Source: Candidatus Latescibacterota bacterium (GTDB lineage: Bacteria > Latescibacterota > UBA2968 > GCA-2709665). Taken from it: a stretch of DNA of 64,000 nucleotides. Positions within the stretch are counted from its first letter, which is position 1. The number at the start of each line of letters is the position of its first letter. The notes under the pieces were generated by a model, which ran no database searches, had not been told where the DNA came from, and saw only the letters and a list, made by a program, of their open reading frames with translations. Positions 4,999-57,485 of this stretch are shown here, in pieces. Both the position numbers and the translations under genes were made by a program. Location: NCBI GenBank assembly GCA_965222075.1, contig OZ244937.1, positions 3,488,001 to 3,552,000 of the forward strand, given 5' to 3'.

Positions 4999-6219
4999 AT
5001 GGAAATTCGGGAGGTTCGCGAATCGGAATTGCAGGAGATGATCGACCTGCTGTGCTTGGTGTTCCGGCCGGCCGGGCAGGAGCGGTATAGGCAGTATATC
5101 CGGGGGGATTCGAGTTACAGGCTGGATCAGACCCGCGTTGTGGCCGCTGACGGGCGGATCGTTTCGACGCTGCGCGTCTGGGACCGCAGGATGCGGGTCG
5201 GCGCGTGTGTCGTGCGGATGGGGGGGATCGGGGGGGTGGGCACGCATCCCGATTATCGAGGCAGAGGATATGCCACGGCGTTGATGCGGGATGCGGTCGA
5301 CTACATGGAGGCCGCAGGTTACGATGTGGGCCTGCTGTTTTCGGAGATTCCGTGCGCGTTTTACCGCAGGCTGGGGTGGGCGAGTCTGCCGCTGGCAGGG
5401 TTTCGGGTGAAGCGAAGGGGAAGCATCGAGTTGGGGGATACGGACTGGGAGGTTGAGGCGTTCGACGAGGGACGGGACTTAGAGCAGGTGGCTGCGCTTT
5501 ACGATGCGTACAACGCAGGCCAGAGCGGGCCAATTGTGCGACCGAGGGCCCACTGGGATACGGCGCCCGCGCGGATACGGGGCATCCTGCCCACGGTGGT
5601 CGCCCGCCGTGGACATACACTGGGCGGATATCTCAATTTTCACGTCGGGGGAAAGGCTGCGACGGTGCTCGAGGTGGCGTATGGTCGAGACGACCCGACC
5701 GCCTTGACGGCGCTGGTCGGCCACCTGCTCCGGGTGTGTGAAGAGAAAGGAGTTGAGGAGGTATGCGGCGAGATTCCGCACCGGCATCCACTGGTTGATC
5801 TGGTTGTGGAGGGCAACGCAGGGGATCTGAGCCTGACCGGGAGTACGTCAACGATGCTCTATGCCGTGAATCTCCCCGCGCTGCTGCGGCGGGTGCTGCC
5901 CGACCTGCAATCCCGGCTGGATGCATCCGATCAGAGGTTCGGTCCGCTGTCGGTCTGCTTTGAGGTTAACGATCAACAGAGCGTGCTGAGGCTGCGCGAT
6001 TCGGGGGCGCTTGAGGTGGGTGACACGGATCCGGGTGCGGAGTGGGTGAGGATGCCGGGGGCGTTCTTCTGGCGGGCGCTGCTGGGTGAATCGAGCTGGG
6101 GGCAGCTTGAGCCGGTTTTGCAAGCACGGGGGATTTCAGCGGGACCGGAGATTTCCGGTTTGTTGAGCGTCCTGTTTCCGCACCAGGAGGTGATTCTCTG
6201 GGGGCCGGATCACTTCTGA
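4999..6219 (+). CDS. Eis-like tandem GNAT N-acetyltransferase with C-terminal SCP2-like domain
   Basis: GGIGGVGTHPDYRGRGYA acetyl-CoA motif, FYRRLGW, second GNAT-like half, ends WGPDHF. Confidence 0.85.
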   Translation: MEIREVRESELQEMIDLLCLVFRPAGQERYRQYIRGDSSYRLDQTRVVAADGRIVSTLRVWDRRMRVGACVVRMGGIGGVGTHPDYRGRGYATALMRDAVDYMEAAGYDVGLLFSEIPCAFYRRLGWASLPLAGFRVKRRGSIELGDTDWEVEAFDEGRDLEQVAALYDAYNAGQSGPIVRPRAHWDTAPARIRGILPTVVARRGHTLGGYLNFHVGGKAATVLEVAYGRDDPTALTALVGHLLRVCEEKGVEEVCGEIPHRHPLVDLVVEGNAGDLSLTGSTSTMLYAVNLPALLRRVLPDLQSRLDASDQRFGPLSVCFEVNDQQSVLRLRDSGALEVGDTDPGAEWVRMPGAFFWRALLGESSWGQLEPVLQARGISAGPEISGLLSVLFPHQEVILWGPDHF

Positions 6220-6326
6220 GGTGAACATACCAGACAGGAGCGCTGCGTTGTACTGCTCTCACTTGATTTCCAGGTCCGGCCCGTTGAAGCAGAGGCCGTT
6301 GTTTTTCATGTTTGGCCCTGGATGGG

Positions 6327-7640
6327 TCAGTCTGCTTTTTTTCCGATACAGTAGAGGTGGGTCGCGGTCCGGATAAAGAGCCAGGACCCGGAAACCGCAA
6401 GGGACGACAGGGTATAGGTGCCGTCCAGTTCGTTCGTAGCCAGGAGCTTGAACTCCGGCCCGGCCGCCAGTACCGTAGAGACGGCCATTTCGTTGAGGAT
6501 GTAGAGCTTCCCGTCGGCCAGCACCGGGGAGGAACTCACAATGCCCTGGGCGGTGCGCTCCGGCCCCCAGATCACCTCGCCGCTTTTGGCATCCAGACAG
6601 GTCGCCCGCCCCCTGTCGTCCACCATGTAGAAGTAGCTGCCGTCACACACAGGCGTGGGCACGTCCGGCGCGCCCGCCCCGGTCCATCTCCAGACAATGT
6701 TGTCTGTGACATCGCCCACGCCTCCGGCGCGCAGGGCCAGCAGGGGCCGCTTGCGCGTAGGGGCATAGATCATGTCGTTTACCACCAGCGGCGAGGCGAC
6801 GACCCGGTAATTGCGCCGCTTCTCGGGGTTCAACCCGCCCGCCCGCCAGAGTTCTTTCCCGGTCTCAGGATCGTGTCCGGTGACGTAATCCCCGCCCGAA
6901 ATCACAACCTGGGTCACCTTGCCCTGTGTGAGCACGGCAGGCGTGGTGTAAGCATCGGGCGATTCCGCCCACGCGTCCGTGGGCCGTTCCCGGCGCCAGA
7001 GTTCCTTGCCGGTCATTGTGTCGAAGGCGACAATGTACGAAGGGTCGTCCGTGCGAAACCCATGGAGCACCTCGAGAATCAGCTTTCCGTCGTAAAGAAG
7101 CGGAGAAGAGGCATAGCCAAAGTTGAGACCAAAGTCGCCGTAGTCCTTCTGAAGATTACGCTTCCAGAGGACCTTCCCATCCATGTCCAGGGCCGTTACC
7201 TGGCCCGTGCCGGTCACGACCCAGACGTGCTTCCCGTCGGTAACGGGAGAAGGCGACGTATTGTTCTGCTTTCGATAAAGCCAGTTGCCTTCGTGGAGTT
7301 TGTGCCTCCAGAGTTCCTTGCCGTTCACCCTGGAAATGCAGAGCAGGAGCAGCTCTTTGCCGCCCGGCTCCTTTTCCTCCTCGGACGCCGCCGGCGAGGG
7401 GGATGTCACGAAGATCCGATCTCCCCAGATGATCGGAGTGCTCGCGCTCCAGGAGGGCAGTGCGGTCTTCCACACGATATTCTTTGTCAGGCTCCAGGTG
7501 GTGGGCAGCTCCGTGGCAGCGGAAACCCCGTTCTGATCGGGTCCGCGCCACTGCGGCCAGTTGTCCTGTGCATGGACTTTGTAAACAGGAGCGAGCAGCG
7601 CAGCGAGCAACAATACAACACAAACACGTTTTCGGATCAC
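6327..7640 (-). CDS. Secreted PQQ-binding-like beta-propeller repeat protein
   Basis: Signal peptide, DNWPQWRGP, WKTALP, repeated GKELW and ASSP motifs. Confidence 0.92.
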   Translation of the reverse strand: MIRKRVCVVLLLAALLAPVYKVHAQDNWPQWRGPDQNGVSAATELPTTWSLTKNIVWKTALPSWSASTPIIWGDRIFVTSPSPAASEEEKEPGGKELLLLCISRVNGKELWRHKLHEGNWLYRKQNNTSPSPVTDGKHVWVVTGTGQVTALDMDGKVLWKRNLQKDYGDFGLNFGYASSPLLYDGKLILEVLHGFRTDDPSYIVAFDTMTGKELWRRERPTDAWAESPDAYTTPAVLTQGKVTQVVISGGDYVTGHDPETGKELWRAGGLNPEKRRNYRVVASPLVVNDMIYAPTRKRPLLALRAGGVGDVTDNIVWRWTGAGAPDVPTPVCDGSYFYMVDDRGRATCLDAKSGEVIWGPERTAQGIVSSSPVLADGKLYILNEMAVSTVLAAGPEFKLLATNELDGTYTLSSLAVSGSWLFIRTATHLYCIGKKAD

Positions 7641-7732
7641 GGGATGGCTCCCTTATGGAAATGCAGGTTTTTCTGCTTGATTTATCAATACCGCTTCTGA
7701 ATGTCAAACTGCTCCCTGGAAAGTCCTCTGTC

Positions 7733-8377
7733 CTATCGGCTGGCCCAGAGCATGCCCCGTCTCTGGATCTCCTTTGCCTGGGGCACGTCGAAGTCTTTTG
7801 CCACGTGGCCCAGGGAGGAGTAGAATACCCGGCCCTCTCCCCACATTCGTTTCCATACGATGGGCATGACGCAGCCGTTGACCCAGGGCGCGACATCGGT
7901 CTGGAAAGTTGTGGTGGCCAGGACTTCGTTGGAGGGATCGACGTGCATGTAGTACTGCTCCGAATGCATGTTGAAGGTTTCGATTCCCTGTGTGATGGGG
8001 TCATCATGATCGAGGATATTGACTTCGTAGTCCACGATGCCGCCCGGATGGGCCACCCACTGGCCGCCGACCATCCACTGGTAGGTTGTGTTGTTGCGGA
8101 ACGCATCGGCCATGCCGCCGTGCCACCCGGCAACGCCCACACCGCTTTTGACCGCGTCCAGCAGGCCCTGCTCCTGCTCCTTTTCGATGGTTCCCATCGT
8201 CCAGATCGGGACAATCAGGCTGAGCGCATGCATCCTGTCCCGGTCTAAGTAGGCATCTAAGGTGTCCGACAGGTCTATGTCGAACCCGCCGTCTGCGAGG
8301 AGGGGGGCAAAGATGTCGACGCACTGCCCGGGTTCGTGACCTTCCCATCCGCCGTAGACGATCAGTGCTTTTTTCAT
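7733..8377 (-). CDS. ThuA-domain (class I GATase-like) protein
   Basis: [45 protein letters not shown]; GGAGG RBS. Confidence 0.92.
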
Positions 8378-45554: not shown

Positions 45555-45613
45555 GATGGCGCAGGCCCGGGGTAGTTGGGTGGCCTGCCAGGGATGGCAG
45601 GGGGTTGGTTTTT

Positions 45614-45643
45614 TGTAAGAAATCAACCGAAGGAAGCGTCTAA
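45614..45643 (+). promoter_or_regulatory. ECF-type promoter TGTAAG-N17-CGTCTAA
   Basis: Resembles ECF AAC/CGT promoters; lies directly upstream of the sigma ATG at 45648. Confidence 0.55.
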
Positions 45644-45647
45644 TAGG

Positions 45648-46214
45648 ATGAACAACGACCCGAGAAACCCCAGAGATCGTTTAAGAATAATGATCGGATC
45701 AGTTATGGCAGATACCAGAGATGAAGCTCTGTTCAAAGATTTGCTGGCTAATCATACAGGTACCATTCTTAAAGTAGCCCGATCCTTTACCTCAACTCAG
45801 GAAGATATGAACGATCTCTCCCAAGAGATTCTCATTCAGCTTTGGCTGGCCATCCCTTCCTACCAGGAACGGTCAAAACCCTCGACGTGGATATACAGAG
45901 TCGCCTTGAACAAGGCATTGACTTGGCAACGTTCCGAAAAGAAACGTTGGGCACGGTATTCTCCATTATCCGAAATCGTGGATGCCAGGATTTCTGAATC
46001 CAATGAAAAACATGAAATTCTTGGTCAACTTTACAGAGAAATCCGTAAACTCAATAAAATCAATCGATCCCTTATACTGTTGTACCTCGATGGGTTCAGT
46101 TACTCAGAGATGGCCGAAACCCTTGGCATGTCCCAGAACAGCGTCGGAGTTCGACTCAACCGCATCAGAAAACAGCTTTCCGAAAATATGAAAGGAGGCT
46201 CCCATGAACTTTGA
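45648..46214 (+). CDS. ECF RNA polymerase sigma factor
   Basis: DLSQEILIQLW, STWIYRVALN (region 2); LYLDGFSYSEMAETLGMSQNSVGVRLNRIRKQL (region 4); alternative start at 45705. Confidence 0.93.
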   Translation: MNNDPRNPRDRLRIMIGSVMADTRDEALFKDLLANHTGTILKVARSFTSTQEDMNDLSQEILIQLWLAIPSYQERSKPSTWIYRVALNKALTWQRSEKKRWARYSPLSEIVDARISESNEKHEILGQLYREIRKLNKINRSLILLYLDGFSYSEMAETLGMSQNSVGVRLNRIRKQLSENMKGGSHEL

Positions 46215-46821
46215 GGATATCACTAAGATCTGGCAGTATCAGACGAATGAGGCGATTCTAATCAGAAATGAAGCAAGTCTTTTAGATGAAGTACGCAAAC
46301 AATATCGTAGGGGTAAACACTGGCTGATCGGGTTGAACCTATATGTACTGATTGTAGGTGTACCTGGCCTCTGTTTTCTCGGCTGGCTGGGGCTGAAAAC
46401 ATGGCCAAACTTCAAAGCCGTATTTCCAGTTGCATTCGGACTTCTTTTCACAACAGTCATACTTACCCTTTTTGTTTCAACCCGACGACAAAGAGTTCGC
46501 GAGCAGAGCTTTGGGAGTTCAGTAAAGGCCAGGATTGAATGTTTACTCTCCCAAGCTAATCACTGGGTCTGGTTACTTCAAGCTTACCTCAGGTGGATCT
46601 TTCCTGCTGGAATCACCGTATGGATCTTGGGCGTGACATGGTGGGGATTAGTCAAAGGACTCCCACTTTGGGGTACTGCTTATATTCTTTTCTGTTCACT
46701 TGGATTCTGTGCGATATACTGGTCTTTTCAACGGATTTACCAAAAGAAATTCCTTCCTCGCAAGCGAGTGCTCGAAGACCTGCTTCGCAGCATCGAAAGC
46801 ACTGGCGAGCACGATGCATAA
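46204..46821 (+). CDS. Four-TM putative anti-sigma factor
   Basis: MNFEDITKIWQ N-terminus, four hydrophobic segments, overlaps the sigma stop, AAGGAGG RBS. Confidence 0.75.
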   Translation: MNFEDITKIWQYQTNEAILIRNEASLLDEVRKQYRRGKHWLIGLNLYVLIVGVPGLCFLGWLGLKTWPNFKAVFPVAFGLLFTTVILTLFVSTRRQRVREQSFGSSVKARIECLLSQANHWVWLLQAYLRWIFPAGITVWILGVTWWGLVKGLPLWGTAYILFCSLGFCAIYWSFQRIYQKKFLPRKRVLEDLLRSIESTGEHDA

Positions 46822-46895
46822 ACAGACTCCTATGACATTTACTTTCTGTTTTTAGGCGGGCCAGGACGGCCGCCTTTGTTTTGGCCTGCGCTTTC

Positions 46896-46984
46896 GTGTA
46901 ACGTTCCCGCAATTCACGAAGCTGCGTAGCAGCTTTGTGGCGTAGGGCGCGAAGCGACCGGAGCCCGTGAATCGCGTGTTAAGC
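46896..46984 (-). mobile_element. Integron attC site 3 (89 bp)
   Basis: Minus strand GCTTAAC-A-CGCGATTCACG...CGTGAATTGCG-GGAAC-GTTACAC. Confidence 0.85.
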
Positions 46985-47036
46985 GCTGGTACGGCGCGGG
47001 GTGGTTATGGTCTTCCTCGCCCGGCCGAGAGCGCGC

Positions 47037-47420
47037 TCAGATATCTATCCGGTAGTCCAACGTGGCTTCGTCCCCTGTCATGCCGCGGAAACCCCAATTA
47101 CCGGCCGGAGTCTCGAAGAGCGTGATCTCTAGATCAATCGGTGCAATCCCCAAATTCTCCCCTATGCGCTTGAACAAAAGGTGGATCAGTTTCTTCCTGA
47201 CTTCTGCTGACCGTCCCTCCATTAGAGAGATCTCAATCACCGTGTACGCATCCGTACGTCCCTCCGGATAGTAGAAGTCTTCAGCATCCATTGGGATGAA
47301 GCGATGTGCTCGTTTATCGGTCGGAAATGAGAGGGCGTCAACCATACATCCGTTGATCACATCGGATAGCTTCGCCTTTATCGGATCCAGATTTTGCCTC
47401 AGACCGTAGACTCGAATCAT
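47037..47420 (-). CDS. Tautomerase-family protein (Tautomerase_2-like)
   Basis: LSDVINGCMVDALSFPTDKRAHRF, IEISLMEGRS.E.RKKL, ETPAGNWGFRG. Confidence 0.85.
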   Translation of the reverse strand: MIRVYGLRQNLDPIKAKLSDVINGCMVDALSFPTDKRAHRFIPMDAEDFYYPEGRTDAYTVIEISLMEGRSAEVRKKLIHLLFKRIGENLGIAPIDLEITLFETPAGNWGFRGMTGDEATLDYRIDI

Positions 47421-47830
47421 GCGGGTTCTCCGTTCTGGCGAATGTGACGGCCTAGCACGCGACGCCTGCGTGTTTGGTATATCGATGCCGCACTTGCATT
47501 TAACTACGGCATTAGCGAACAGATGCAGTGATACAGTCCAGACCTGGATATTGCCGAACGTTCGGGAACATTTCGCTTTGGAAGTGTTTAGCCCGAACAT
47601 GTTCAGAGATGCTTCCTATGGTGGCATCGTCATCATCCATAACCTGCCTCTTTTTTGGCAATTATTGCATCCAACGGCCTTCGTACTTATGCGAAATCCC
47701 GATTCGTAACCCATGTATAGATCTGTGCTGATATGCAAAAAAATGATCCGGAGACACAACGCGCATCTTCGGACACGTCAAACAGCCTGCCCAACTTTTT
47801 CTGCTGATTTCTATGTCGCTCTTAATACCT

Positions 47831-48616
47831 CTAAAGCTTGCCCTCCACAAAATCCAGGAACATCGGATTCCCCACCGTCACCCCCCCGTCCGCCACAATC
47901 GTCGCTCCGGTCACAAACGACGCCTCGTCCGACGCCAGGAAAAGCGCCACATTGGCAATCTCCTCCGGCTGTCCCACCCGCTGTAGAGGATACACCGTTG
48001 CCAACCGATCTAAAAGCTCCGGGTCCTTTTCCAGCGCCGGCTGCCAGGTATCGGTCGCAATCGTCCCCGGGCAGATCGCATTCACCCGAATGCCGTCCGG
48101 CCCGTAGTCCACCGCCATCGTCCGCGTCAGGGCGATCACCCCCGCCTTCGCTGCGCTGTACGCGCTCTCTCCAAACGACATCAGCGCATTCACAGAAGAA
48201 ATATTCACAATCGATCCGCCCTTCCGCTGAAACATCTGCGGAAGCGCCGCCCGGCTGCACAGGTAGGTGCTCTTGAGCACCCCTTCGATATTCCGGTCCC
48301 ACAACGCCGGCTCGACCTCCAGCACGTGGGTGCCCTTGCAAAAGTAGGCGTTGTTCACCAGAACGTCCAGCCCCCCAAATTGCTCCACCGCCGCATCCAC
48401 CGCCCGCGTTACATCCTCCTCAGCTGTCGCGTCGCCCACCACCAGCGCAGCCTCGCCCCCCGCCTCCCGGATCTGTGCCACAGCCGACGCCCCTCGCTCC
48501 TCGTTCAGCTCTAAGATCACCACCCGGGCGCCCTCCTGCGCAAACCGCACCGCCGTGGCCCGCCCGATGCCCGCGCCCCCCCCGGTAATCCAGGCAGTTT
48601 TATCTTTCAGCCTCAT
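47831..48616 (-). CDS. Short-chain dehydrogenase/reductase
   Basis: TGGGAGIG, VNNA, YSAAK, RVNAICPG, ADGG. Confidence 0.95.
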   Translation of the reverse strand: MRLKDKTAWITGGGAGIGRATAVRFAQEGARVVILELNEERGASAVAQIREAGGEAALVVGDATAEEDVTRAVDAAVEQFGGLDVLVNNAYFCKGTHVLEVEPALWDRNIEGVLKSTYLCSRAALPQMFQRKGGSIVNISSVNALMSFGESAYSAAKAGVIALTRTMAVDYGPDGIRVNAICPGTIATDTWQPALEKDPELLDRLATVYPLQRVGQPEEIANVALFLASDEASFVTGATIVADGGVTVGNPMFLDFVEGKL

Positions 48617-49666: not shown

Positions 49667-50722
49667 CTACTCCTTGGCCTCTTCCTGCTCGCCCTTCTTT
49701 CCCTTCGCAGGTGAAAGCGGCCCCAGCACGAACTCCTTAGACCCCCGGGCAGATTCAGAGCCGCGCATCAGCCCTACGATAAAGCTGGCAGCACCAAAGA
49801 TCGCCGCCAGGTACAGCGCCGTCTCCTTGACCGAACCGCCCGCCTGCCAGGCGGCGAGCGCCCCCATGAGCGCCCCCGAGCTCGCGCCCCCCAGGCCCGA
49901 CATCACAGCCGTCCGCATTGCGCCTGTCCCCCGGTCTCCCAGCGTGCGCAGCCGGTCGATCTCCTCGACGGCGACCCGCCGCGTATCCAGATCGGTCTCG
50001 ATCAGGATCTGGCCGTTTTCATAAATGGGCACCAGTTCCCCCCGGATTACATTTCCATTCTTCAGCACCAGCTGTCCCGGCACGCGCCGACCCACCCAAA
50101 ACCGGAGGGCCCGCGTCTCAAAAGAGATCTCTTCATCCGTATACTTGGGGTAGTCGGCGTCCTCGGCAATCCTGGATATTTTGCCGATCTTATACTTTCC
50201 CTTCTGGATCTCTTCAAAGTGCTCGATATATTCCCGCAGCAGCCGCAGATCGTTGTCGTCCCTCATCGGAACCATCCGGTCCTCCAGCCTGGGCCCCGAC
50301 CGGTAACGGATCTTCACCCCGGGCTTCCCATCCGACCGCTTCAAAAACATCGCCGATTGGAACCCCGGCACCGCCATATTGAACAGCCTCAGATCGATCT
50401 TCTGGTTAAACGCATTTCTCCCATGAAACATGGCAAACCGATTGCTTTCTTCCAGATTGATCTCCCGGCCTACCATCGGACTCACCAGCACCAGCGTCCC
50501 TGTCACCTTCCGGATGTCTACGATGGCCCACCCATCATCCCCCCGACCGACAATTTTCCGTACAGCCCGTGTTTTCTCCCCCTTCCCCTCTCCAGCCTCC
50601 TTCTTACCCTCAGATCCTCCTCCATCCTTCGTATCCTCCTCCGCCCATACCCTCCCCGTGGCGACAAAGCTGCTCCACACCAGACAGAGTACCGTAGCCA
50701 AAATGACTGTTTTTTTGAACAT
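49667..50722 (-). CDS. Hypothetical exported protein with a C-terminal glycine-zipper TM pair
   Basis: N-terminal signal peptide, Sm-like segment GQLVLKNGNVIRGEL, GLGGASSGALMGALAA. Confidence 0.7.
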   Translation of the reverse strand: MFKKTVILATVLCLVWSSFVATGRVWAEEDTKDGGGSEGKKEAGEGKGEKTRAVRKIVGRGDDGWAIVDIRKVTGTLVLVSPMVGREINLEESNRFAMFHGRNAFNQKIDLRLFNMAVPGFQSAMFLKRSDGKPGVKIRYRSGPRLEDRMVPMRDDNDLRLLREYIEHFEEIQKGKYKIGKISRIAEDADYPKYTDEEISFETRALRFWVGRRVPGQLVLKNGNVIRGELVPIYENGQILIETDLDTRRVAVEEIDRLRTLGDRGTGAMRTAVMSGLGGASSGALMGALAAWQAGGSVKETALYLAAIFGAASFIVGLMRGSESARGSKEFVLGPLSPAKGKKGEQEEAKE

Positions 50723-50848
50723 AATCCACCCCTCTTGAGATTGGCATGTCCTCTTTTCCCGGCGCGAACTCAAAACTCAATTTACAGTAGTCGCCCGATA
50801 GAGTCAAGCCCAACACACGAGGGCCGCGCCCAAATCTCACATTGTAAC

Positions 50849-50879
50849 CGAACCGTTTCGCCCCTATCTTACGTCTATA
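50849..50879 (+). promoter_or_regulatory. ECF-type promoter CGAACC-N17-CGTCTATA
   Basis: AAC and CGT hallmarks upstream of the ECF fusion gene. Confidence 0.55.
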
Positions 50880-51016
50880 TGGTTGCTGACGGTCCATTTC
50901 GTAAGTTCGTGTGACATTCCCTTGGTATCCTTCCGTGACTCAAAAATGCAAAGCGCATAGCGTGAAAAGGCTTCTGTGATGCTTTGCGCCTTGCGATCTG
51001 CGCTTTGCGATCCGAC

Positions 51017-52840
51017 ATGGACGCATCCGATCCCAGCCTCATCCGCCGTACCCTGAGCGGCGATGCCGATGCCTTCGGCCAGCTTGTCGATCGCTACAAG
51101 GAGGCGGTCTACGGCGCCGCGTATGCCCGCCTCGGCAACTTCCAGGATGCCCAGGACATCGCCCAGGAGGCCTTCATCCAGGCCTACCGGTGCCTCGCCT
51201 CCCTGCAAACACACGGCCGGTTTGCAAGCTGGCTCTATGCCATCGTCTGTAACCTCTGCCGCGACCACTTCCGCACCCGCCGTGAAACGCTGCCCTTAGA
51301 AGAGGGGGCGTCCCTCGGCGCGTCCGATCCCGCCGACGAGCACGACCGCCGCGCCCTCCACCGGCGCATCCAGCGCGCCATCGCCGCCCTCTCCGACACC
51401 CACCGTGAAACCGTCACCCTCTACTACATCAACGGCTACACCTGCGACGAGGTCGGCCGCTTCTTAGACGTCCCCACCGGCACGGTCAAACGCCGCCTCT
51501 TCGACGCTCGCAAACAACTCAAAAAGGAGATGACCGACATGGTCCGCGACATGTTCGACGCCCACAAACTCCCGCCCAATTTCCGCAAGGTCGTCATTGA
51601 CGGGGGGGCCTTAGACCCCAAATCCGACACGCCTCGCCTCCACATCCGAGACCGCAAACGGCGGGGCTTTCCCATCGAAACGGGGGACTTCCAGGCCACA
51701 GCGATCTATATGCATCTGCAAAAGGATCTGCCGCCGCGCCCGATCACCTACGATCTGTTTCACGGGATCTGCAGCGCCTTCGGCATCGTCCTCGACGGCA
51801 TCGGCATCACAAAATATAGAAATCGCTACCGGGCGGACGTTACCTTCACGAGGGGCAAACAGTCGATCACCCTCGAAGCCGACCCCGGTGACGCCGTAGC
51901 CCTGGCAATCCGCTTCAACGCCCCGGTTTACGCAGACGAAAGCCTCTTAAAAGGCACGATCTTCCGGCGCCCCAAAAAGGCTCCGATGAAACTGCAGAGG
52001 CAGAAACCGCGCAAACGGTCTTCAATTCAGATCGCCGAAAATTCACCCTTCGCCCTGGTCGACAACTCAGGCGATAAAATCGAAAAAGCACAGATCGTCG
52101 TCAGTGTGCAGCGGCCGGCATCGCCGCCCTCCGAACGGACGCGTGCGCGTCGTATCTCAAATCCGGGAACCCTGCTATCCATCCAAATGGCCAGCGTGGC
52201 ACTGGAACCCAACTCCCGGCGTCCTCTCATCTGGCTGGCGGATAAAGAAAAGAGAACACACCTCCGCATCGTCATTGGCAACTACGAAGTGGGTTCCATC
52301 GCTTCTGCGCTTCCCAAAGCCATATTAAAATTGCCCGGTGGCGTAAAGGGGAAGACCACCCGGGACAGAGGATGGGCGTATGACCTGTTAAAAACTGTCC
52401 TGGACACCTTTGGTATCGTCCACGACCGAGCGGTCATCGACCTGCTCCACAGCGACACGTTCTACGCCTTCAGTTTCTTCCGCCGGGGCAAAACCGTCAG
52501 ACGGCTCGACACACGCCCCAGCGACGCCATCGCCTTATCGCTTCGTACCGGTGCGGAAATCGAAATCCACAAAACGGTTCTGGAGCAGGCCGGACTCGAT
52601 AGACACAAGATGCAAGAATTGCAGGAAAAAAACGGAAAAGAAAAAACAAAGGAACGACGGGTTGAAGTGCCTTACATTCTCAAGCGCGGCGACAAATTCC
52701 GTTTTGCGATCAAATCCTGCCGCAAGTTTACGTGGGAAAGCAGCCATCCGTCCATCGCCTCCGTCACCCCGGACGGCGTTGTGGAGGCGTACAAAGAGGG
52801 CAACGCGACCATCACCGCCACCTGGGTAGAAAAAAAGTAG
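51017..52840 (+). CDS. ECF sigma factor fused to two bifunctional nuclease (DUF151/BFN) domains and an Ig-like (Big_2) tail
   Basis: DAQDIAQEAF, SWLYAI, GTVKRRLFDARKQL; PRPITYDLF...ADPGDAVALAIR; DTFYA...LDTRPSDAIALSLR; TWESSHPSIASVTPDGVVEAYKEGNATITAT. Confidence 0.85.
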   Translation: MDASDPSLIRRTLSGDADAFGQLVDRYKEAVYGAAYARLGNFQDAQDIAQEAFIQAYRCLASLQTHGRFASWLYAIVCNLCRDHFRTRRETLPLEEGASLGASDPADEHDRRALHRRIQRAIAALSDTHRETVTLYYINGYTCDEVGRFLDVPTGTVKRRLFDARKQLKKEMTDMVRDMFDAHKLPPNFRKVVIDGGALDPKSDTPRLHIRDRKRRGFPIETGDFQATAIYMHLQKDLPPRPITYDLFHGICSAFGIVLDGIGITKYRNRYRADVTFTRGKQSITLEADPGDAVALAIRFNAPVYADESLLKGTIFRRPKKAPMKLQRQKPRKRSSIQIAENSPFALVDNSGDKIEKAQIVVSVQRPASPPSERTRARRISNPGTLLSIQMASVALEPNSRRPLIWLADKEKRTHLRIVIGNYEVGSIASALPKAILKLPGGVKGKTTRDRGWAYDLLKTVLDTFGIVHDRAVIDLLHSDTFYAFSFFRRGKTVRRLDTRPSDAIALSLRTGAEIEIHKTVLEQAGLDRHKMQELQEKNGKEKTKERRVEVPYILKRGDKFRFAIKSCRKFTWESSHPSIASVTPDGVVEAYKEGNATITATWVEKK

Positions 52841-52920
52841 GGGCGGGTTTCAAACCCGCCCCCGCATCCACCAATCGCCCTCGGCCTCTATCCGTGTCAA
52901 TCTGTGTTCATCCGTGGTTC
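52837..52920. repeat. GTAG REP-like palindrome and ATCCGTG-type 10-bp repeats
   Basis: GTAGGGGCGGGTTT-C-AAACCCGCCCC, then ATCCGTGTCA ATCTGTGTTC ATCCGTGGTT. Confidence 0.7.
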
Positions 52921-53550
52921 CCCACCCATCCCTTCCCCCGTAATCTCCGAAGCAATCCCATCTAAGATATAGGGGCGGTACTTCTGGAACCGGGTCCGCC
53001 TGTGAAACCACCACCCCCCCTGAACCGCTGTCCCGATCACCCGCACAAACTGCATCAGGGACGGCGGTTCTGCGTGTATTTCCCCGTACGACCAGAAGGC
53101 GATCTTTTGCCGCACCTCCTCCCGGCCGCCCTGCGACGTCCGGATCGGCTCGTTCATCGGAAAGAGGACCTCCCCGTCGAACAGTACCGACGCATCGCAC
53201 CGGTACTTCTGCGCGGCCCCCGATAGCCGCTCTCTCCCCGGAACCGCCACCCCCGTCACATAATCGATATCTTTTTTTTCCACCACATCCATGAAAAGTG
53301 TGCGCATCCGGTTTTTCAATCCTCCGTACTCATCTAAAAGCCGGAGCGACCTCGGGTTCACCCCCACATAGAGGTCTCCCAACCCGTTATAGCGCCTGCT
53401 CTCCGAAACAAAATCCTCCTCATTGTCGAACAACCCGATGCCGATGATATCCTCTCCATCCAGGGCCTTGAGTTGCGTCAGTCCCAACTCCGGCCTGTGC
53501 TGCAACAAGTCGTAGTGCCGCCGTACGTCTCGCTCGTTGAACGACCTCAT
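52897..53550 (-). CDS. Hypothetical protein translationally coupled to argH, possible RepB/primase-like fold
   Basis: ATGA overlap with the argH stop at 53547-53550; LYVGVNPR motif. Confidence 0.65.
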   Translation of the reverse strand: MRSFNERDVRRHYDLLQHRPELGLTQLKALDGEDIIGIGLFDNEEDFVSESRRYNGLGDLYVGVNPRSLRLLDEYGGLKNRMRTLFMDVVEKKDIDYVTGVAVPGRERLSGAAQKYRCDASVLFDGEVLFPMNEPIRTSQGGREEVRQKIAFWSYGEIHAEPPSLMQFVRVIGTAVQGGWWFHRRTRFQKYRPYILDGIASEITGEGMGGEPRMNTD

Positions 53551-54953
53551 CCCTCTGCCTCTTTTATTCGCTCCGCCAGGCGCTGCCATCCCTCTGCAAT
53601 CTGGCCCTGCACCGCCTTCCGGCCCGTTCCCCCGGGCAGATCCCGAAGCGCCGTACTCTGCTCCGGTGAAAGGACCTCTTTGACGTCCGCCTCGAACCGG
53701 TCCGACGCCGCCTGAAACGTCTCTAAGTCCAGATCCTCCAGCCGCATCCCCGTCTCCAGCGCCGTCCGGACCAGTTTGCCTACAACCTGATGACACGCTC
53801 GAAAAGGCATCCCCTTCCGAACCAGGTAATCGGCCAAATCCGTAGCCAAAATCATTCCATCCAGTGCGGTGAACATCCGGTCTTTGTGGACCGCCATCGT
53901 CGCCCACGCCCCGGCAAATACCTCCAGTGCCATCCAGACCGTGTCCACCGTATCGAAAAACGGTTCCTTGTCCTCCTGCATATCCTTGGCATACGTCAAC
54001 GGCATCCCCTTCATCACCGTCAACAGCGAGGTCAAATTGCCGTAAACCCGCCCCGTCTTGCCCCGCACCAGCTCCAGCGAATCGGGATTCACCTTCTGAG
54101 GCATCATGCTCGACCCGGTGCTGCAGGCCTCATCTAACGCTACAAACCCGAACTCCGAAGACGACCAGACAATTAGATCCTCGCAGAATCGGCTGAGATG
54201 CCCCATCAAAATCGCCGCTGCGGAAAGGTACTCTAAAAGGTAGTCCCGGTCGCTCACCGCGTCGATGCTGTTCTCTGTCACCCGCGAAAACCCCAGCTCG
54301 CTGGCCAGAAACGCGCGGTCCACCGGGTACGCGCTCCCCGCCAGCGCCCCCGACCCCAGCGGCATCGCATCGGCTCGAGCCGCGCTGTCCACAAACCGTC
54401 CCCGGTCCCGCTCCAGCATCCAGAAAAGCGCCATCGTATACTGGGAAAACCGGACGGGTTGGGCCTGCTGCAAATGCGTGTAACCCGGCATCACCACCTC
54501 GATGTGCCGCTCCGCAGAATCCAGCAGCACCGCCTCCAGCCGGTCGATCCGATCCACCGTCCCCCCGATCGCCTCCCGCAGATAGAGCCGCTCATCCAAG
54601 GCCACCTGATCGTTCCGGCTGCGCCCCGTGTGGATCTTCCCTCCCACAGGCCCTACAATCTCCGTCAACCGCACCTCCACGGCCATGTGAATATCTTCTA
54701 AGTCATCCGTCAGCGCCAGCTTCCCCGCTGCAATCTCCTCCTCCACCCGATCCAGCCCCTCTAAGATCCGGTCCCGCTCCTGTACCGTCAGCACCCCGAT
54801 CCGCTCCAGCGCCTTCGTCTGCGCCCGGCTACCTTCAATATCCACCCGGTAGAGCCGCCTGTCGAACCCGATCGAGGCGTTGAACCGCTCCACCACCGCC
54901 TCGGTCGTCTTCACAAACCGCCCGGCCCAAGGCTTCTCTTTGGAATTACGCAT
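53547..54953 (-). CDS. argH: Argininosuccinate lyase
   Basis: WAGRF, HTGRSRNDQVA, PGYTHLQ, GSSMMPQKVNPD. Confidence 0.98.
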   Translation of the reverse strand: MRNSKEKPWAGRFVKTTEAVVERFNASIGFDRRLYRVDIEGSRAQTKALERIGVLTVQERDRILEGLDRVEEEIAAGKLALTDDLEDIHMAVEVRLTEIVGPVGGKIHTGRSRNDQVALDERLYLREAIGGTVDRIDRLEAVLLDSAERHIEVVMPGYTHLQQAQPVRFSQYTMALFWMLERDRGRFVDSAARADAMPLGSGALAGSAYPVDRAFLASELGFSRVTENSIDAVSDRDYLLEYLSAAAILMGHLSRFCEDLIVWSSSEFGFVALDEACSTGSSMMPQKVNPDSLELVRGKTGRVYGNLTSLLTVMKGMPLTYAKDMQEDKEPFFDTVDTVWMALEVFAGAWATMAVHKDRMFTALDGMILATDLADYLVRKGMPFRACHQVVGKLVRTALETGMRLEDLDLETFQAASDRFEADVKEVLSPEQSTALRDLPGGTGRKAVQGQIAEGWQRLAERIKEAEG

Positions 54954-54984
54954 ACAGCCACCTCAATGGATTAATGAAGGCTTT

Positions 54985-56235
54985 TCAATCCGAAATCCGA
55001 ATTTCTATCTGTCCCGCCACGTGCTGCGCCTTCGCCCCCACACCCAGCACATTCAGAAACCCTTCCGAATCCCGGTGGTCGTAATCTCCCACTGCCTCCA
55101 TCGAAGAAAGCTCCGGGGAGTAGAGCGAATGGGAAACCCCCTTCGACGCCTGATAGGTCACCGTCCCCTTGTAAACCGACACCTTTACCGACCCCGCAAG
55201 CAGCGCATGCACCGGCGCCAGCGCACCCCGCATCATCTCCGAAGCCAAGTCGTAATAATACCCCTGATAGATCTGTTCCGAAAGCGCCGCCGAAAGCGAA
55301 TCGTAGAACCGCCGCGCCCTCCGGTCTAAGACCTGCTGCAGCAGGAACTCATAACAGGCCCCCAGCAGCGACATGCCGGGACTTTCGTACACTCCCCGCG
55401 ACTTGATCCCCACAAACCGGTTCTCCACCGTATGGATCCCGATCCCGACCCCGTTGCGCCCTCCGATCTCATTGGCCTTCAACAGCGCCCCCGTTGCATC
55501 CACCTCCTCCCCATTGATCCGGACGGGCCGCCCCTCCTGCAGTTCAACCGTAAACGTCTCCGGTTGGTCGGGCGCATCCTTGGGAAAAACCCCCATTCCA
55601 GACTCGATAAAATCCGCCGCCACATCCAAGTACTCCAGCTTCCCAGCCTCATGCGTCAACCCTAAGAGATTCGCATCGGTCGAATACGGCTTCTCCTGGC
55701 TCGCCGTAATCGGCAGTCCCCGCGCCTCACAGAACGCAATCATCTCCCGGCGGCCCCCGAAATACTCCAAGAACGCATCGTCCCGCCAGGGCGCGTACAC
55801 CTGCACCGTGGGATCCAGCATATTCGCCACCAGTTGAAACCGCACCTGGTCGTTTCCCCGCCCCGTGGCCCCGTGCGCCAGCACACCGATCCCCCTCCGA
55901 CCCATCTCCTCCAAGATCCCCCGGGTCGTCACATGGCGTGCAATCCCGGTCGTATTCCAGTACCCCCCTTCGTACTGCGCCCCGGCGGCCAGCACCGTCA
56001 GCGCCGCCTCGGCCAGCTCCTCCTTCAGGTCGATCAGCACCGCCTCGGCCGCCCCGCAGGCCAGCATCCGCTTCCGGATATCCTCAACATCCTCCTCATC
56101 CGGCTGTCCGATATCGGCCGTCACGCTTACCACCTCCACCCCCTGGTCCGCCAGCCACCGCGTTACCGTACAGCTATCCAGCCCCCCCGACGCCGCCAGC
56201 GCAATCCGTTTTCCCCTCAGGTCTTTCACGGTCAT
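54985..56235 (-). CDS. argG: Argininosuccinate synthase
   Basis: AASGGLDS, HGATGRGNDQVRF, YSTDANL, ENRFVGIKSRGVYE. Confidence 0.97.
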   Translation of the reverse strand: MTVKDLRGKRIALAASGGLDSCTVTRWLADQGVEVVSVTADIGQPDEEDVEDIRKRMLACGAAEAVLIDLKEELAEAALTVLAAGAQYEGGYWNTTGIARHVTTRGILEEMGRRGIGVLAHGATGRGNDQVRFQLVANMLDPTVQVYAPWRDDAFLEYFGGRREMIAFCEARGLPITASQEKPYSTDANLLGLTHEAGKLEYLDVAADFIESGMGVFPKDAPDQPETFTVELQEGRPVRINGEEVDATGALLKANEIGGRNGVGIGIHTVENRFVGIKSRGVYESPGMSLLGACYEFLLQQVLDRRARRFYDSLSAALSEQIYQGYYYDLASEMMRGALAPVHALLAGSVKVSVYKGTVTYQASKGVSHSLYSPELSSMEAVGDYDHRDSEGFLNVLGVGAKAQHVAGQIEIRISD

Positions 56236-56285
56236 GGAAGCTCACTCCTTAACTTACGGGAGGCAGGTCGACCCGCCGGTCGCCC

Positions 56286-57485
56286 CTAATACCCCTTCAA
56301 AATCTCATCCAGCGCCTCCACCGCCTCGTCGATATGCCCTTTCTCGATCACCAGCGGCGGCAAAAACCGCACCACATCCGGTCCTGCCACACACACCAGC
56401 ATCCCCCGCTCCCGAAACGCCCCCACCACATCCCCGGCCGCCACATCCTTCAGCACCGCCCCTGCAATGAGTCCCTTACCCCGGATTTTCGTAACCACCT
56501 CCGGATGGTGGTCCTTTACCTCGCCCAGTCTTGCGTGCAGATACTCCCCCTTCGCCTTCACCCCGGAAATAAACGCCGGATCGGACAACTGCTTGAACAC
56601 CTCGATCGCCACTGCGCACGACACCGGATGCGCCCCGAACGTGGCCGCATGGTCTCCCGGCTCGACCGCGTTCGCCACCGCCTGCCGCATCAGCGTCACC
56701 CCGATCGGCAGCCCTCCCGCCAGCGCCTTGGCCAGCGTCATCATATCCGGCTCCACGCCGTAGTGCTGGTAACAGAAAAGCGCCCCCGTCCGGCCCAGCC
56801 CACTTTGAATCTCGTCGAACACCAGCAGCATCTTCATCTCATCACAGAGCTGCCGCAGCCCCTTCAGAAAATCCGGTTCCGCAAGGTGAATGCCGCCCTC
56901 CGCCTGCAGGGGCTCTAAAATCACCGCCACCGTCTCCGCATCCACCAGCTTCTCCACCGACTCCAGATCGTTAAAATCGGCGAACGAAATCCCCGGCAGC
57001 ATCGGCCCGAACCCCTTGTGGTACTTCGGCTGACCCGTGGAGGAAACCGACCCGTAGGTGCGCCCGTGGAACGAATCCTTCATCGCGATAAATTTGTATT
57101 TGGGCTTCTCCGGAAAGGTCTTGTACGCCCACTTCCGGGCAAACTTCAACGCCGCCTCCCACGACTCCGTCCCGCTGTTGCAGAAAAATGCCCGGTCTGC
57201 AAAAGAGTTTTCACACAGCATTTCCGCCAGCTGCGGCGCCGGAATCGTGTGGTACAGGTTGGACACGTGAATCAGCCTCCCCGCCTGCCCCGCCATCGCT
57301 TCCTGAACCATACCAACGTTGTACCCCAGCGCATTCACCGACAGCCCGCTCACAAAATCCAGGTACCGGTTGCCGTCTGTATCGAACAGATACACCCCAT
57401 CGCCCTTCTCCAGCACCAACTCCGGCCGCACGTAGGTTTGGAGGATGTATTTCTGTTCCAGCTCGATGACTGCCTTTGTATCCAT
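56286..57485 (-). CDS. argD: Acetylornithine aminotransferase
   Basis: SFHGRT, EPLQAEGG, FDEIQSGLGRTG, LAKALAGG; operon context. Confidence 0.95.
   Translation of the reverse strand: MDTKAVIELEQKYILQTYVRPELVLEKGDGVYLFDTDGNRYLDFVSGLSVNALGYNVGMVQEAMAGQAGRLIHVSNLYHTIPAPQLAEMLCENSFADRAFFCNSGTESWEAALKFARKWAYKTFPEKPKYKFIAMKDSFHGRTYGSVSSTGQPKYHKGFGPMLPGISFADFNDLESVEKLVDAETVAVILEPLQAEGGIHLAEPDFLKGLRQLCDEMKMLLVFDEIQSGLGRTGALFCYQHYGVEPDMMTLAKALAGGLPIGVTLMRQAVANAVEPGDHAATFGAHPVSCAVAIEVFKQLSDPAFISGVKAKGEYLHARLGEVKDHHPEVVTKIRGKGLIAGAVLKDVAAGDVVGAFRERGMLVCVAGPDVVRFLPPLVIEKGHIDEAVEALDEILKGY

Follow-up and report, generated by a model that had tools for sequence, protein, structure and literature searches.

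An ECF sigma factor gene with a built-in C-terminal module

We analyzed a window of 64,000 nt from a Candidatus Latescibacterota bacterium (assembly GCA_965222075.1, contig OZ244937.1, positions 3,488,001–3,552,000, forward strand). A conserved gene in the window codes for a sigma factor of the stress (ECF) type. At its C-terminus the protein is fused to a module of its own, in which two diverged DUF151/BFN domains are followed by a small Ig-like domain (Table 1). Two start codons are available to the open reading frame. The ATG is the likely start, given that the equivalent Met begins the homologues and that two orthologous loci have their ATG at the aligned position. In the 607-aa product Pfam identifies Sigma70_r2 (aa 23–89, E 2.4e-16), Sigma70_r4 (aa 121–170, E 2.5e-11), Sigma70_ECF (aa 8–173), BFN_dom (PF02577, E 1.2e-40, in two stretches) and Big_2 (aa 566–602, E 1.5e-7, 31.7 bits vs. 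a cut-off of 22.8, over profile positions 31–67 of 79). An earlier sequence-only reading of the locus had proposed sigma regions 2 and 4, two DUF151 repeats and a Big_2-like tail, and Pfam matches all of these. The same reading had claimed that the protein lacks a transmembrane segment. We found none: the top Kyte–Doolittle 19-residue window reaches 1.57 and lies within a BFN helix, and the protein N-terminus is polar.

Table 1 Features of the sigma-BFN locus (positions within the window)
Feature	Position	Strand	Basis
ECF-type promoter candidate: GAACC (-35), 17-nt spacer, CGTCTA (-10)	50850..50877	+	sequence motif, conservation
ORF	51017 (ATG) or 50984 (TTG) to 52840	+	frame uninterrupted; product 607 aa from 51017
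ECF sigma core (aa 1–180; region 2 aa 23–89, region 4 aa 116–170)	51017..51556	+	Pfam, NCBIfam, PDB
Post-sigma-4 junction (aa 171–195, EMTDMVRDMFDAHKLPPNFRKVVID), leads into BFN repeat 1	51527..51601	+	alignment and model
BFN repeat 1 (aa 186–316)	51572..51964	+	Pfam, 76 bits at aa 213–312 (scanned separately); TM0160 fold in model
Inter-repeat segment (aa 317–382)	51965..52162	+	composition, pLDDT, invariant columns
BFN repeat 2 (aa 383–540)	52163..52636	+	Pfam, 69 bits at aa 407–528; invariant columns; motif table
Ig-like (partial Big_2, PF02368) C-terminal domain (aa 548–607)	52658..52837	+	Pfam, model
GC-rich hairpin, starts at stop codon	52839..52863	.	terminator scan

The sigma core has regions 2 and 4 without regions 1.1 and 3, the arrangement of ECF (group 4) sigma-70 factors, and the Pfam sigma matches are limited to Sigma70_r2, r4, r4_2 and Sigma70_ECF. 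The general NCBIfam model for sigma70-ECF (TIGR02937) scores 96.8 bits vs. a cut-off of 42.9. None of the NCBIfam equivalogs listed (SigW, SigM, RpoE and others) reaches its cut-off, the best being SigW (PRK09641) with 118.2 vs. 209 bits. Sequence matches of the core in the PDB are SigW, AlgU and sigma-E. Group ECF57 was considered as the home group since WD40-tailed sigmas occur among the relatives, and was rejected because its description (about two transmembrane helices and a conserved Cys pair) does not fit. The junction that follows sigma region 4 is near-invariant among 11 tandem proteins and is modelled, in the full-length prediction, as an extension of the last sigma-4 helix (H154–180).

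Assignment of the repeats to PF02577 had been named as a point to check, and both score far above the gathering score of 27. The two repeats share 26% identity (E 2e-11) and have kept different parts of the family signature. Repeat 1 retains R241-P242-I-T244 (in P240-RPITYDL), and D289-PGD(A) replaces RPSD; the conserved Asp of the family is thus still present in DPGD, and is Tyr in two relatives. Repeat 2 lacks RPxT, reading R451-GWAY455-DL with an insertion just before it, and retains the invariant D498-x-R500-P501-S502-D503 (D498-TRPSDAIAL) together with TFYA at 481–484. Both repeats have Tyr where RPLTHDL has His. These motifs (PRPITYDL and DPGDA; RGWAYDL, DTRPSDAIAL and TFYA) were found just as the sequence-only reading had listed them. 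Neither repeat has RPxTH-DL and RPSDA, both conserved in the family, within one domain; it takes the pair of repeats to make up the full set.

Between the repeats lies a basic, disordered stretch with 17 K/R in 69 aa. Residues 318–335 have pLDDT <50, a beta-hairpin-like insert (aa 336–365) has pLDDT 74–82, and a short helix carries the invariant P371, R376 and R379. A Pfam scan of this segment gave no match. Scanned in isolation, the C-terminal tail matches Big_2 with E 3.7e-9 (36.9 bits). The match is partial, covering about profile positions 29–67 of 79, and the model shows six beta-strands over aa 553–603 with pLDDT ~78–92. Of the 11 tandem proteins that were aligned, 10 have the tail, and P0010 stops short of it.

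Candidate promoter and genomic neighborhood

The promoter motif GAACC-N17-CGTCTA occurs once in the 64-kb window, vs. 0.09 occurrences expected. A GAACC-N17-TTACGTCTATA block lies upstream of the orthologues at loci L001 and L061, where the flanks diverge. In a comparison that covers three orthologous upstream regions, the motif is found in all three loci, in none of the 78 other loci with related sigmas, and in 10 of 1600 random stretches of 340 nt. This conservation is in line with the ECF-type promoter suggested earlier, and the gene is probably transcribed from it, with positive autoregulation. The 136 nt from promoter to ATG fold no better than shuffled sequence (z 0.11), and Rfam gave no match across 50700–53000.

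The terminator scan called the hairpin at the 3′ end on the minus strand, with 11 pairs and a T-run after them; read on the plus strand, the hairpin comes after an A-run. It is likely a terminator common to the convergent minus-strand gene, and would also serve this gene on the plus strand. The ORFs after the hairpin lie on the opposite strand, and no anti-sigma domain was found in the flanking ORFs, in agreement with the earlier claim that no anti-sigma gene follows. Comparison of the window with the L001 orthologue shows completely different neighbors.

Conservation of the fusion

In a homologue search, sigma and PF02577 domains occur together in 30 of 60 matches, and BFN_dom was detected in 52 of the best 93 representatives scanned. 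Ten protein clusters, at 41–100% identity, align over 99% or more of the query length. An artefact of assembly or gene calling that joined a sigma gene to a separate BFN gene might be suspected because the L001 orthologue is split into two ORFs (5983–7338 and 7335–7763) and because, at L057, sigma and BFN lie in overlapping frames. The L001 split, however, is one frame change within a continuous tblastn match over residues 5–602, and the reading frame in the window is without a break. Identical 618-aa calls, forming one cluster, are found on several contigs, three of which are 5.24, 5.36 and 5.46 Mb long. Some full-length clusters are on contigs of 5–8 Mb, and the ten clusters come from independent sources. 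We consider an artefact vanishingly improbable, and this reading effectively refuted.

A scan of genome contigs that used generic sigma peptides as patterns returned 80 loci, in 3 of which BFN is fused to or lies beside the sigma. L001 is the sole full-length orthologue in this set, and L061 is a short orthologous fragment. No stand-alone tandem BFN module was seen among 17 matches of 232–739 aa, and an ESM Atlas search with aa 186–607 gave no usable match. In BFN-less related sigmas the sigma profile is matched to position 188 or beyond, out of 196, in 95 of 121 proteins, and 107 of 121 continue for at least 100 aa past the sigma.

Complementary motif loss in tandem BFN domains

Across 26 two-BFN sigma proteins, which represent about two evolutionary origins and not 26 independent events, no domain carries both RPxT and RPSD (0/26), and 23 show strict complementarity, with RPxT in one domain and RPSD in the other. 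These motif calls derive from one MAFFT alignment and from HMMs built from class A. Thirteen proteins are RPxT-only followed by RPSD-only, ten have the reverse order, and three have RPSD in domain 2 only. Single-BFN proteins keep both motifs in 34 of 53 cases; of the other 19, no fewer than 7 are pieces of tandem proteins. For the two classes, the domains that retain RPSD fall in different single-BFN sigma-fusion clades (support 98/95 and 100/94). Thus, the asymmetry evolved in two lineages, whose domain orders are opposite.

The second lineage is represented by class B, sigma-BFN-TPR-BFN proteins of ~690–850 aa (for example P0084, P0096 and P0105). These share with the protein in the window the sigma clade, the junction, the two BFN domains and the complementary loss. 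They differ in that domain 1 keeps RPSD and domain 2 RPxT, in a TPR_19-containing spacer of ~220–275 aa between the domains (9 of 10 proteins), and in having no Big_2 tail in the nine that were scanned with Pfam (P0159 left out). In addition, domain 1 of class B belongs to a different BFN clade.

The closest structural references are TM0160 (1VJL/1SJ5) and Cor/Rv1829, single-domain homodimers that share the fold and PF02577 with both repeats and in which RPxT and RPSD line a cleft at the dimer interface. In TM0160 the pocket spans the monomers, with Asp115 and His58 of one and Thr57 of the other, according to a secondary citation within the part of PMC7249048 that we used. Mycobacterium tuberculosis Cor is described as dimeric, its interface containing a conserved cleft (PMC3870250, in part). 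Unlike these proteins, the window encodes two diverged copies in one chain, fused to a sigma, each with one motif lost, and with Tyr for the His of RPLTHDL. The halves that are kept, RPxT of one domain vs. RPSD plus the H/Y position of the other, reproduce the TM0160 split.

Structure prediction is consistent with this correspondence. Based on AlphaFold2, the tandem (aa 186–545) has pLDDT 82.7 and pTM 0.79, with repeat 2 at pLDDT 90–97. The top Foldseek matches of both domains are 1vjl and 1sj5 (E ~1e-9 to 1e-10, target-normalised TM 0.78–0.84). The complementary loss fits a TM0160-type cleft built across two monomers, and it suggests that the two BFN domains form an intramolecular pseudo-dimer with one composite pocket. 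A single-chain pseudo-dimer with one composite site had been put forward in the sequence-only reading, and the absence of any both-motif domain, the 23 complementary proteins, the TM0160 split and the pTM of the tandem model all support it. As each repeat has lost one motif, at most one pocket would survive. Conservation of the composite pocket is incomplete: 3 of 16 class-A proteins have Gly or Pro for Thr, and the residue at the H/Y position differs between proteins. Among single-BFN sigma fusions that keep RPxT (n = 37), the His position is Y in 13, H in 12, A in 7 and another residue in 5.

Proposed nuclease activity and nucleic-acid sensing

The name of the Pfam family invites a model in which the tandem BFN domains bind or cleave nucleic acid, either sensing damaged or foreign DNA or RNA to switch on their own sigma, or acting as a sigma-tethered nuclease at promoters or transcripts. 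DNase and RNase activity has been reported in vitro for the plant proteins OmBBD and AtBBD1/2 (PMC7249048, in part), the inter-repeat linker is strongly basic, and the Asp of RPSD is invariant in repeat 2. However, the His of the putative catalytic triad, an assignment taken from a secondary citation in the part of PMC7249048 that we used, has been replaced by Tyr in each repeat and varies among sigma-BFN fusions. The bacterial BFN-only protein Cor, in recombinant form, was without DNase or RNase activity, and its authors suggested that the plant activity may not stem from DUF151 (PMC3870250, in part). Beyond TM0160, the structure search gives no nuclease fold, and no DNA-repair or nucleic-acid gene is a conserved neighbor. 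We regard catalysis as a nuclease as unlikely, and the broader model, sensing included, as rather improbable.

The premise of the sequence-only reading, that BFN domains are dimeric and DNase/RNase-like, is weaker than it was put: the plant BBDs are reported to be active (PMC7249048), but Cor, the one bacterial BFN protein assayed in the papers that we used, is dimeric and inactive (PMC3870250; both sources in part). Its proposal of damage sensing, or of sensing or cleaving nucleic acid, is not supported, as nothing that we found points to nucleic acid and Tyr occupies the position of the putative triad His. The plant BBDs (OmBBD, AtBBD1/2; HCR-DUF151-UVR) and the plastid UVR-DUF151 proteins share with the fusion the BFN domain and its joining to protein-interaction modules. 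They differ in having one BFN with HCR and UVR regions and no sigma, and in the nuclease activity reported in vitro.

Proposed regulation of the sigma factor in cis

We favor, at somewhat better than even odds, the reading that the gene encodes a cytoplasmic ECF sigma factor without an anti-sigma that carries its regulator in cis, the tandem BFN domains acting as a one-pocket pseudo-dimer that gates the sigma. The two domains would most likely pack like two TM0160 or Cor monomers, a geometry that we infer. Repeat 1 retains no more than the RPxT half, and repeat 2 no more than the RPSD half with the adjoining H/Y position. Of the two pockets of a homodimer, one would therefore survive, lined by R241, P242 and T244 of repeat 1 and by Y455, R500, P501, S502 and D503 of repeat 2, and the second, symmetric pocket would have decayed. 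The single pocket may bind some ligand or partner, and its occupancy may be passed through the junction helix to gate how the sigma binds RNA polymerase or the promoter. The full-length model, with pLDDT 30–60 in its sigma part and an overall pTM of 0.55, gives no confident arrangement of sigma and module. A complex prediction for sigma (aa 1–185) with the module (aa 186–545), run without controls, scored 0.00, which is no answer and counts neither for nor against binding.

Control of the sigma by the module is proposed from the example of other C-terminal extensions of ECF sigmas, which in the groups studied so far modulate the sigma and correlate with a missing anti-sigma factor (PMC7826278; PMC8999054; both in part). 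The protein in the window resembles these sigmas in its sigma-2/sigma-4 core without a cognate anti-sigma gene, in its long fused extension and in the candidate ECF-type promoter upstream, and would resemble them in having its regulator built into the sigma. It has the sequence features of a C-terminal-extension ECF (more than 50 aa past sigma-4 and no neighboring anti-sigma), with ~430 aa beyond sigma-4. The elements of the ECF41, ECF42, ECF56, ECF57 and ECF238 extension types (SnoaL-like, TPR, WD40/TM or Cys-rich) were not found in it by Pfam or hydropathy.

Within the same sigma clade, the same junction helix leads into a variety of C-terminal domains, including protein kinase, WD40, AAA_16-TPR, CarboxypepD_reg, receiver and Rho RNA-binding domains. 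Such diversity after one junction, together with the conserved autoregulatory-type promoter, could mean that the C-terminal module is cargo: the sigma would bring a BFN module with an enzymatic or binding function to RNA polymerase or to specific promoters, would be constitutive once made, and would be controlled transcriptionally only, through autoregulation. We judge this very improbable, as the extensions studied so far modulate their sigmas, and as a positive autoregulatory loop without a post-translational brake would be unstable.

Other fusions raise the alternative that the BFN module is a proteostasis handle for a Clp-type unfoldase/protease or a partner, so that the sigma is set by degradation or sequestration and not by a small ligand. 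Three sigma-BFN fusions (P0020, P0027 and P0224) end in two C-terminal Clp_N repeats, others end in TPR or ankyrin repeats, and BFN-PDZ proteins make up 4 of 17 matches (2 confirmed). Plant UVR-DUF151 proteins are among the most enriched in a ClpC1 trap (PMC8889267, in part), and protein recognition would be a fitting role for the Ig-like tail and the basic, disordered linker. Against this, the query has no Clp_N, UVR or PDZ domain, trapping by ClpC1 may mean a substrate only, and strict conservation of a small pocket at the interface is more in keeping with a ligand or short motif than with a broad protein surface. A proteostasis role is thus unlikely in our view.

BFN as a probable new type of ECF extension

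Built-in C-terminal regulators of ECF sigmas are a known idea of which few types have been studied, and the BFN extension would be a new kind. Neither the main text of PMC7826278 nor section 3.5 of PMC8999054 lists BFN among the extension types. In the former, the 2021 ECF reclassification, the words "nuclease" and "DUF151" do not occur in the main text, and "DUF151", "DNase-RNase" and "PF02577" do not occur in the part of the supplement that we covered. A literature search found no relevant paper linking ECF sigmas to BFN/DUF151; an apparent link between DUF151 and a sigma factor in 10.1101/072470 was discarded, as the term there is DUF1513.

A wider interpretation, which we offer as a tentative possibility, is that BFN/DUF151 is a dimeric module that senses a ligand or partner and is not a nuclease, its site being the cross-dimer pocket. 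An ECF clade of Latescibacterota, Handelsmanbacteria, Armatimonadota and relatives would use the junction helix as a socket for swappable sensors, BFN being the commonest. Duplication of BFN in two lineages, with asymmetric decay to a one-pocket pseudo-heterodimer, would then have freed the sigma from its dependence on dimerization and made it a one-component switch that works as a monomer.

DUF151 occurs widely in bacteria, archaea and plants, includes an M. tuberculosis gene needed for pathogenesis, and has a contested nuclease label. Complementary decay in tandem copies provides comparative evidence for the cross-dimer pocket as the functional site. If the sensor reading is true, the fusions would be the first direct functional read-out of the DUF151 pocket, including that of the virulence factor Cor: fusion to a sigma would turn pocket occupancy into transcriptional output, and with it allow an easy assay of BFN binding.

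Domain content and predicted structure

The window protein, the 607-residue product of the sigma-BFN gene, is an ECF sigma factor followed by two BFN (DUF151, PF02577) repeats and a Big_2 tail. A sequence-only reading had described the tandem repeats, quoted their motifs and predicted neither transmembrane segment nor signal peptide. All of this stands: the repeats, scanned as separate pieces, both score above the PF02577 cut-off, every quoted motif occurs as written, and neither a transmembrane segment nor a signal-like N-terminus was found. The repeats share 26% identity (E 2e-11), and the isolated tail matches Big_2 at 36.9 bits, covering only half of the profile. The sigma core is intact and belongs to the generic ECF superfamily (NCBIfam TIGR02937, 96.8 versus a cut-off of 42.9); no NCBIfam equivalog cut-off is reached by the protein. 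Translation likely starts at the ATG, because full-length relatives all begin at the equivalent Met and the start codons (ATG) of two orthologous loci fall at the same place in the alignment. Residue 59, within sigma region 2, is Cys (YRCLASL; window 51191-51193); at this position every relative, including the otherwise identical P0002 that represents its cluster, has Arg or another residue.

Features of the sigma-BFN gene, its product and its surroundings (positions within the window unless marked aa)
Feature	Position	Strand	Remarks
Second, conventional ECF sigma and overlapping 205-aa ORF	45576-46821	+	Sigma of 212 aa; weak sigma-profile match, E 6.5e-13
Flanking ORF, 368 aa	49667-50773	-	Divergent; no Pfam match
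Candidate promoter	50850-50877		GAACC-N17-CGTCTA
Sigma-BFN ORF	50984 (TTG) or 51017 (ATG) to 52840	+	
Sigma70_r2	aa 23-89		Pfam
Sigma70_r4 and r4_2	aa 116-170		Pfam
Sigma70_ECF			Pfam
Post-sigma-4 junction	aa 171-195 (51527-51601)		Contains EMxDMVRDMFDAHKLPxxF
BFN_dom	Two stretches		Pfam, E 1.2e-40
BFN repeat 1	aa 213-312		Pfam on separate piece, 76 bits (cut-off 27)
BFN repeat 2	aa 407-528		Pfam on separate piece, 69 bits (cut-off 27)
Big_2	aa 566-602		Pfam
GC-rich hairpin, 11-bp stem	52839-52863		Starts at the sigma-BFN stop codon
Flanking ORF, 336 aa (long form)	52897-53907	-	No Pfam match
Three long ORFs	53547-57485	-	

Foldseek matched the N-terminus to ECF sigmas and the BFN parts solely to TM0160, a single-domain BFN homodimer of known structure (TM 0.78-0.84). 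The full-length AlphaFold2 model (11-row alignment; pLDDT 70.8, pTM 0.55) is of good quality in its BFN and Ig parts and of poor quality in its sigma part (pLDDT 30-60). Residues 186-545 alone (17-row alignment) reach pLDDT 82.7 and pTM 0.79, consistent with two BFN domains in a fixed mutual arrangement of predicted geometry. The repeats are separated by a disordered, basic stretch (17 K/R in 69 residues), a beta-hairpin insert in the model, and a short helix in which P371, R376 and R379 are invariant.

Conservation of the fusion

A word-indexed protein search with the window protein gave 60 matches, half of which (30/60) combine sigma and PF02577. In ten clusters the match spans 99% or more of the query, with identities of 41-100%; the identical cluster has eight members, among them 618-residue copies on contigs of 5.24, 5.36 and 5.46 Mb, and an 80%-identity relative is located on an 8.08 Mb contig. 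With ten near-full-length clusters and Mb-scale contigs, the fusion is real and conserved. The relatives that carry a name come from MAGs of Candidatus Handelsmanbacteria and Latescibacterota, and source annotations of relatives read as plain sigma factors or BFN-domain proteins. An exhaustive phmmer search of 1.84 billion representatives retrieved 517 proteins at E up to 1e-30; among the best 150 of these, BFN_dom was present in 52 of the 93 scanned with Pfam, and local HMMs identified BFN in 8 of the remaining 57.

Architectures among the relatives are sigma-BFN (about 330-480 residues), sigma-BFN-TPR, sigma-BFN-ankyrin, sigma-BFN-Clp_N, sigma-BFN-TPR19-BFN (about 690-850 residues) and sigma-BFN-BFN; the window protein is sigma-BFN-BFN-Big_2. 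Among 17 matches of 232-739 residues, none was a stand-alone tandem BFN module. At locus L001 the Latescibacterota orthologue falls into two ORFs that overlap (5983-7338 and 7335-7763), both within a single unbroken tblastn match, and at a related-sigma locus, L057 (5980-7492), sigma and BFN lie in overlapping frames. Both are probably indel errors in MAG assemblies, a real split being conceivable.

Complementary motif loss in two-BFN proteins

After removal of nine near-identical or fragmentary cluster members and of all segments shorter than 95 residues, 105 BFN domains were extracted from the collected relatives with HMMs built from the two repeats. They were aligned, and from this one alignment each domain was scored for an N motif (R-P-x-[T/S]) and a C motif (RPSD). 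A domain with both motifs occurs in 0 of 26 two-BFN sigma proteins. Thirteen of the 26, the window protein included, have an N-only domain followed by an adjacent C-only domain (class A). Ten have this order reversed, with RPSD kept in domain 1 and RPxT in domain 2 (class B, sigma-BFN-TPR19-BFN: P0084, P0090, P0094, P0096, P0097, P0105, P0116, P0121, P0152 and P0159); in nine of them a TPR-containing spacer of about 220-275 residues separates the domains. In the other three, also of class A, domain 1 reads RPxG or RPxP, which leaves nothing but the C motif of domain 2. Both motifs are kept in 34 of 53 single-BFN proteins; of the 19 exceptions, at least seven are pieces of tandem proteins and four belong to the class-B domain-1 clade. 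The complementary loss first noticed in the window protein is therefore systematic and not peculiar to it.

In both classes the RPSD-keeping domain also keeps the His/Tyr position (the putative catalytic His of RPLTHDL), and RPxT comes from the other domain. If each domain had its own site, decay would be expected to leave one intact and one dead domain, whereas a site to which one subunit contributes the N motif and its partner the C motif would lead to crosswise loss, as observed. Cor (Rv1829), a BFN-only protein of M. tuberculosis, is reported as a dimer whose interface holds a conserved cleft (PMC3870250). We consider the domain and pseudo-dimer parts of the reading well supported, and the comparative finding on the BFN pocket reaches beyond the window gene.

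In a maximum-likelihood tree of 102 BFN domains (unrooted, with a midpoint root used for description), the class-A RPSD-keeping domains form one clade (98/82), with 21 single-BFN sigma fusions as its sister group (98/95). Their class-B counterparts form another (100/99), which lies inside a different group of single-BFN domains (100/94). Because these clades are separate, the opposite-order architectures most likely arose separately, although a more complex history is conceivable on an unrooted tree. Across the midpoint root from these clades are the RPxT-only domains of classes A and B; their grouping is weakly supported (64/68) and may reflect long-branch attraction.

Possible roles of the BFN module

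The sequence-only reading had gone further and suggested a nuclease, or a sensor of nucleic acid or damage. A nuclease or damage-sensor role is not supported: both repeats have Tyr in place of the putative catalytic His, and at this position the 37 single-BFN sigma fusions that keep RPxT have Tyr (13), His (12), Ala (7) or another residue (5). The conserved Asp is replaced by Tyr in repeat 1 of two relatives, nothing in the gene neighbourhood points to DNA repair, and Cor is without DNase or RNase activity (PMC3870250). There are hints of a link to proteostasis or protein recognition. BFN is joined to Clp_N repeats, PDZ, TPR and ankyrin domains in other proteins, three sigma-BFN proteins carry two terminal Clp_N repeats (P0020, P0027 and P0224), short BFN-PDZ proteins exist (P0216-P0219), and a ClpC1 trap captured plant UVR-DUF151 proteins with strong enrichment (PMC8889267).

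A wider form of the post-sigma-4 junction, R-x-x-L-K-x-E-M-x-x-M-V-x-x-x-F-x-x-H-x-L-P-x-x-F, is common to related sigmas (P0017-P0215), and the C-terminal domains that follow it differ: protein kinase, WD40, AAA_16-TPR, CarboxypepD_reg, receiver, Rho RNA-binding, TPR and ankyrin. Among 121 collected sigmas without BFN, 95 match the sigma profile through the junction and 107 extend at least 100 residues beyond the sigma part. The junction has the look of a shared socket onto which different C-terminal modules can be fitted. C-terminally extended ECF sigmas usually have no anti-sigma factor and are controlled by their extension (PMC7826278 and PMC8999054). By analogy, we read the BFN pseudo-dimer as the putative sensor or regulator of its sigma, with the single surviving pocket as the input site; whether the module regulates the sigma, by inhibiting it or by being required, we judge to be close to a coin toss.

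No literature connecting ECF sigmas with BFN/DUF151 was found. Papers naming DUF151 do not concern sigma factors, as judged by their titles and abstracts; a match to 'DUF151' and 'sigma factor' was dismissed, as its text read DUF1513, and two further matches listed deal, by their titles, with GpsB and with the ecology of marine DUFs. The main text of the ECF reclassification (PMC7826278) contains neither 'nuclease' nor 'DUF151', and the part of its supplement examined contains no 'DUF151', 'DNase-RNase' or 'PF02577'. Since the fusion is presumably listed in domain-architecture databases, and C-terminal extensions themselves are already known, we rate the tandem BFN module as an apparently new extension type on ECF sigmas, not as a new kind of system.

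Promoter and genomic context

The GAACC-N17-CGTCTA site is the sole one in the window (0.09 expected), and a GAACC-N17-TTACGTCTATA block is kept upstream of the orthologues at L001 (56% identity to the window protein) and L061 (65% over its 104 available residues), amid diverging flanks. A relaxed motif occurs upstream at 3/3 orthologous loci, at 0/78 other related-sigma loci and in 10/1600 random windows. The ECF-type candidate promoter and the lack of an anti-sigma gene, both proposed earlier, are borne out by this motif, kept at three orthologous loci, and by a neighbourhood in which no anti-sigma domain was found. Across the three loci compared, the conserved candidate promoter would fit autoregulation of the sigma-BFN gene.

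The neighbours differ between the two loci compared: a divergent 368-residue protein, a hexapeptide-repeat protein, DUF309 and downstream minus-strand ORFs in the window; ABC transporters, DUF1854 and a BlaR1/TonB_C protein at L001. On the minus strand the hairpin at the stop codon carries a T-run, and on the plus strand an A-run precedes it; it is therefore likely a bidirectional terminator between convergent genes. The 336-residue ORF beyond it shares sequence with the following ORF on the minus strand (53547-54953), and its translation therefore probably begins at an internal codon. Further on, the translations of three long ORFs resemble, to the eye, argininosuccinate lyase, argininosuccinate synthase and acetylornithine aminotransferase of arginine biosynthesis. 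Inspected in the same way, the translation of the 368-residue ORF shows one hydrophobic segment at the N-terminus and others, rich in Gly/Ala, at the C-terminus. The second ECF sigma of the window is overlapped on its 3' side by a 205-residue ORF with several hydrophobic segments; the two look like a classic pair of sigma and membrane anti-sigma, and lie within a lower-GC patch (46001-48000; GC 0.50 versus about 0.6 around it).
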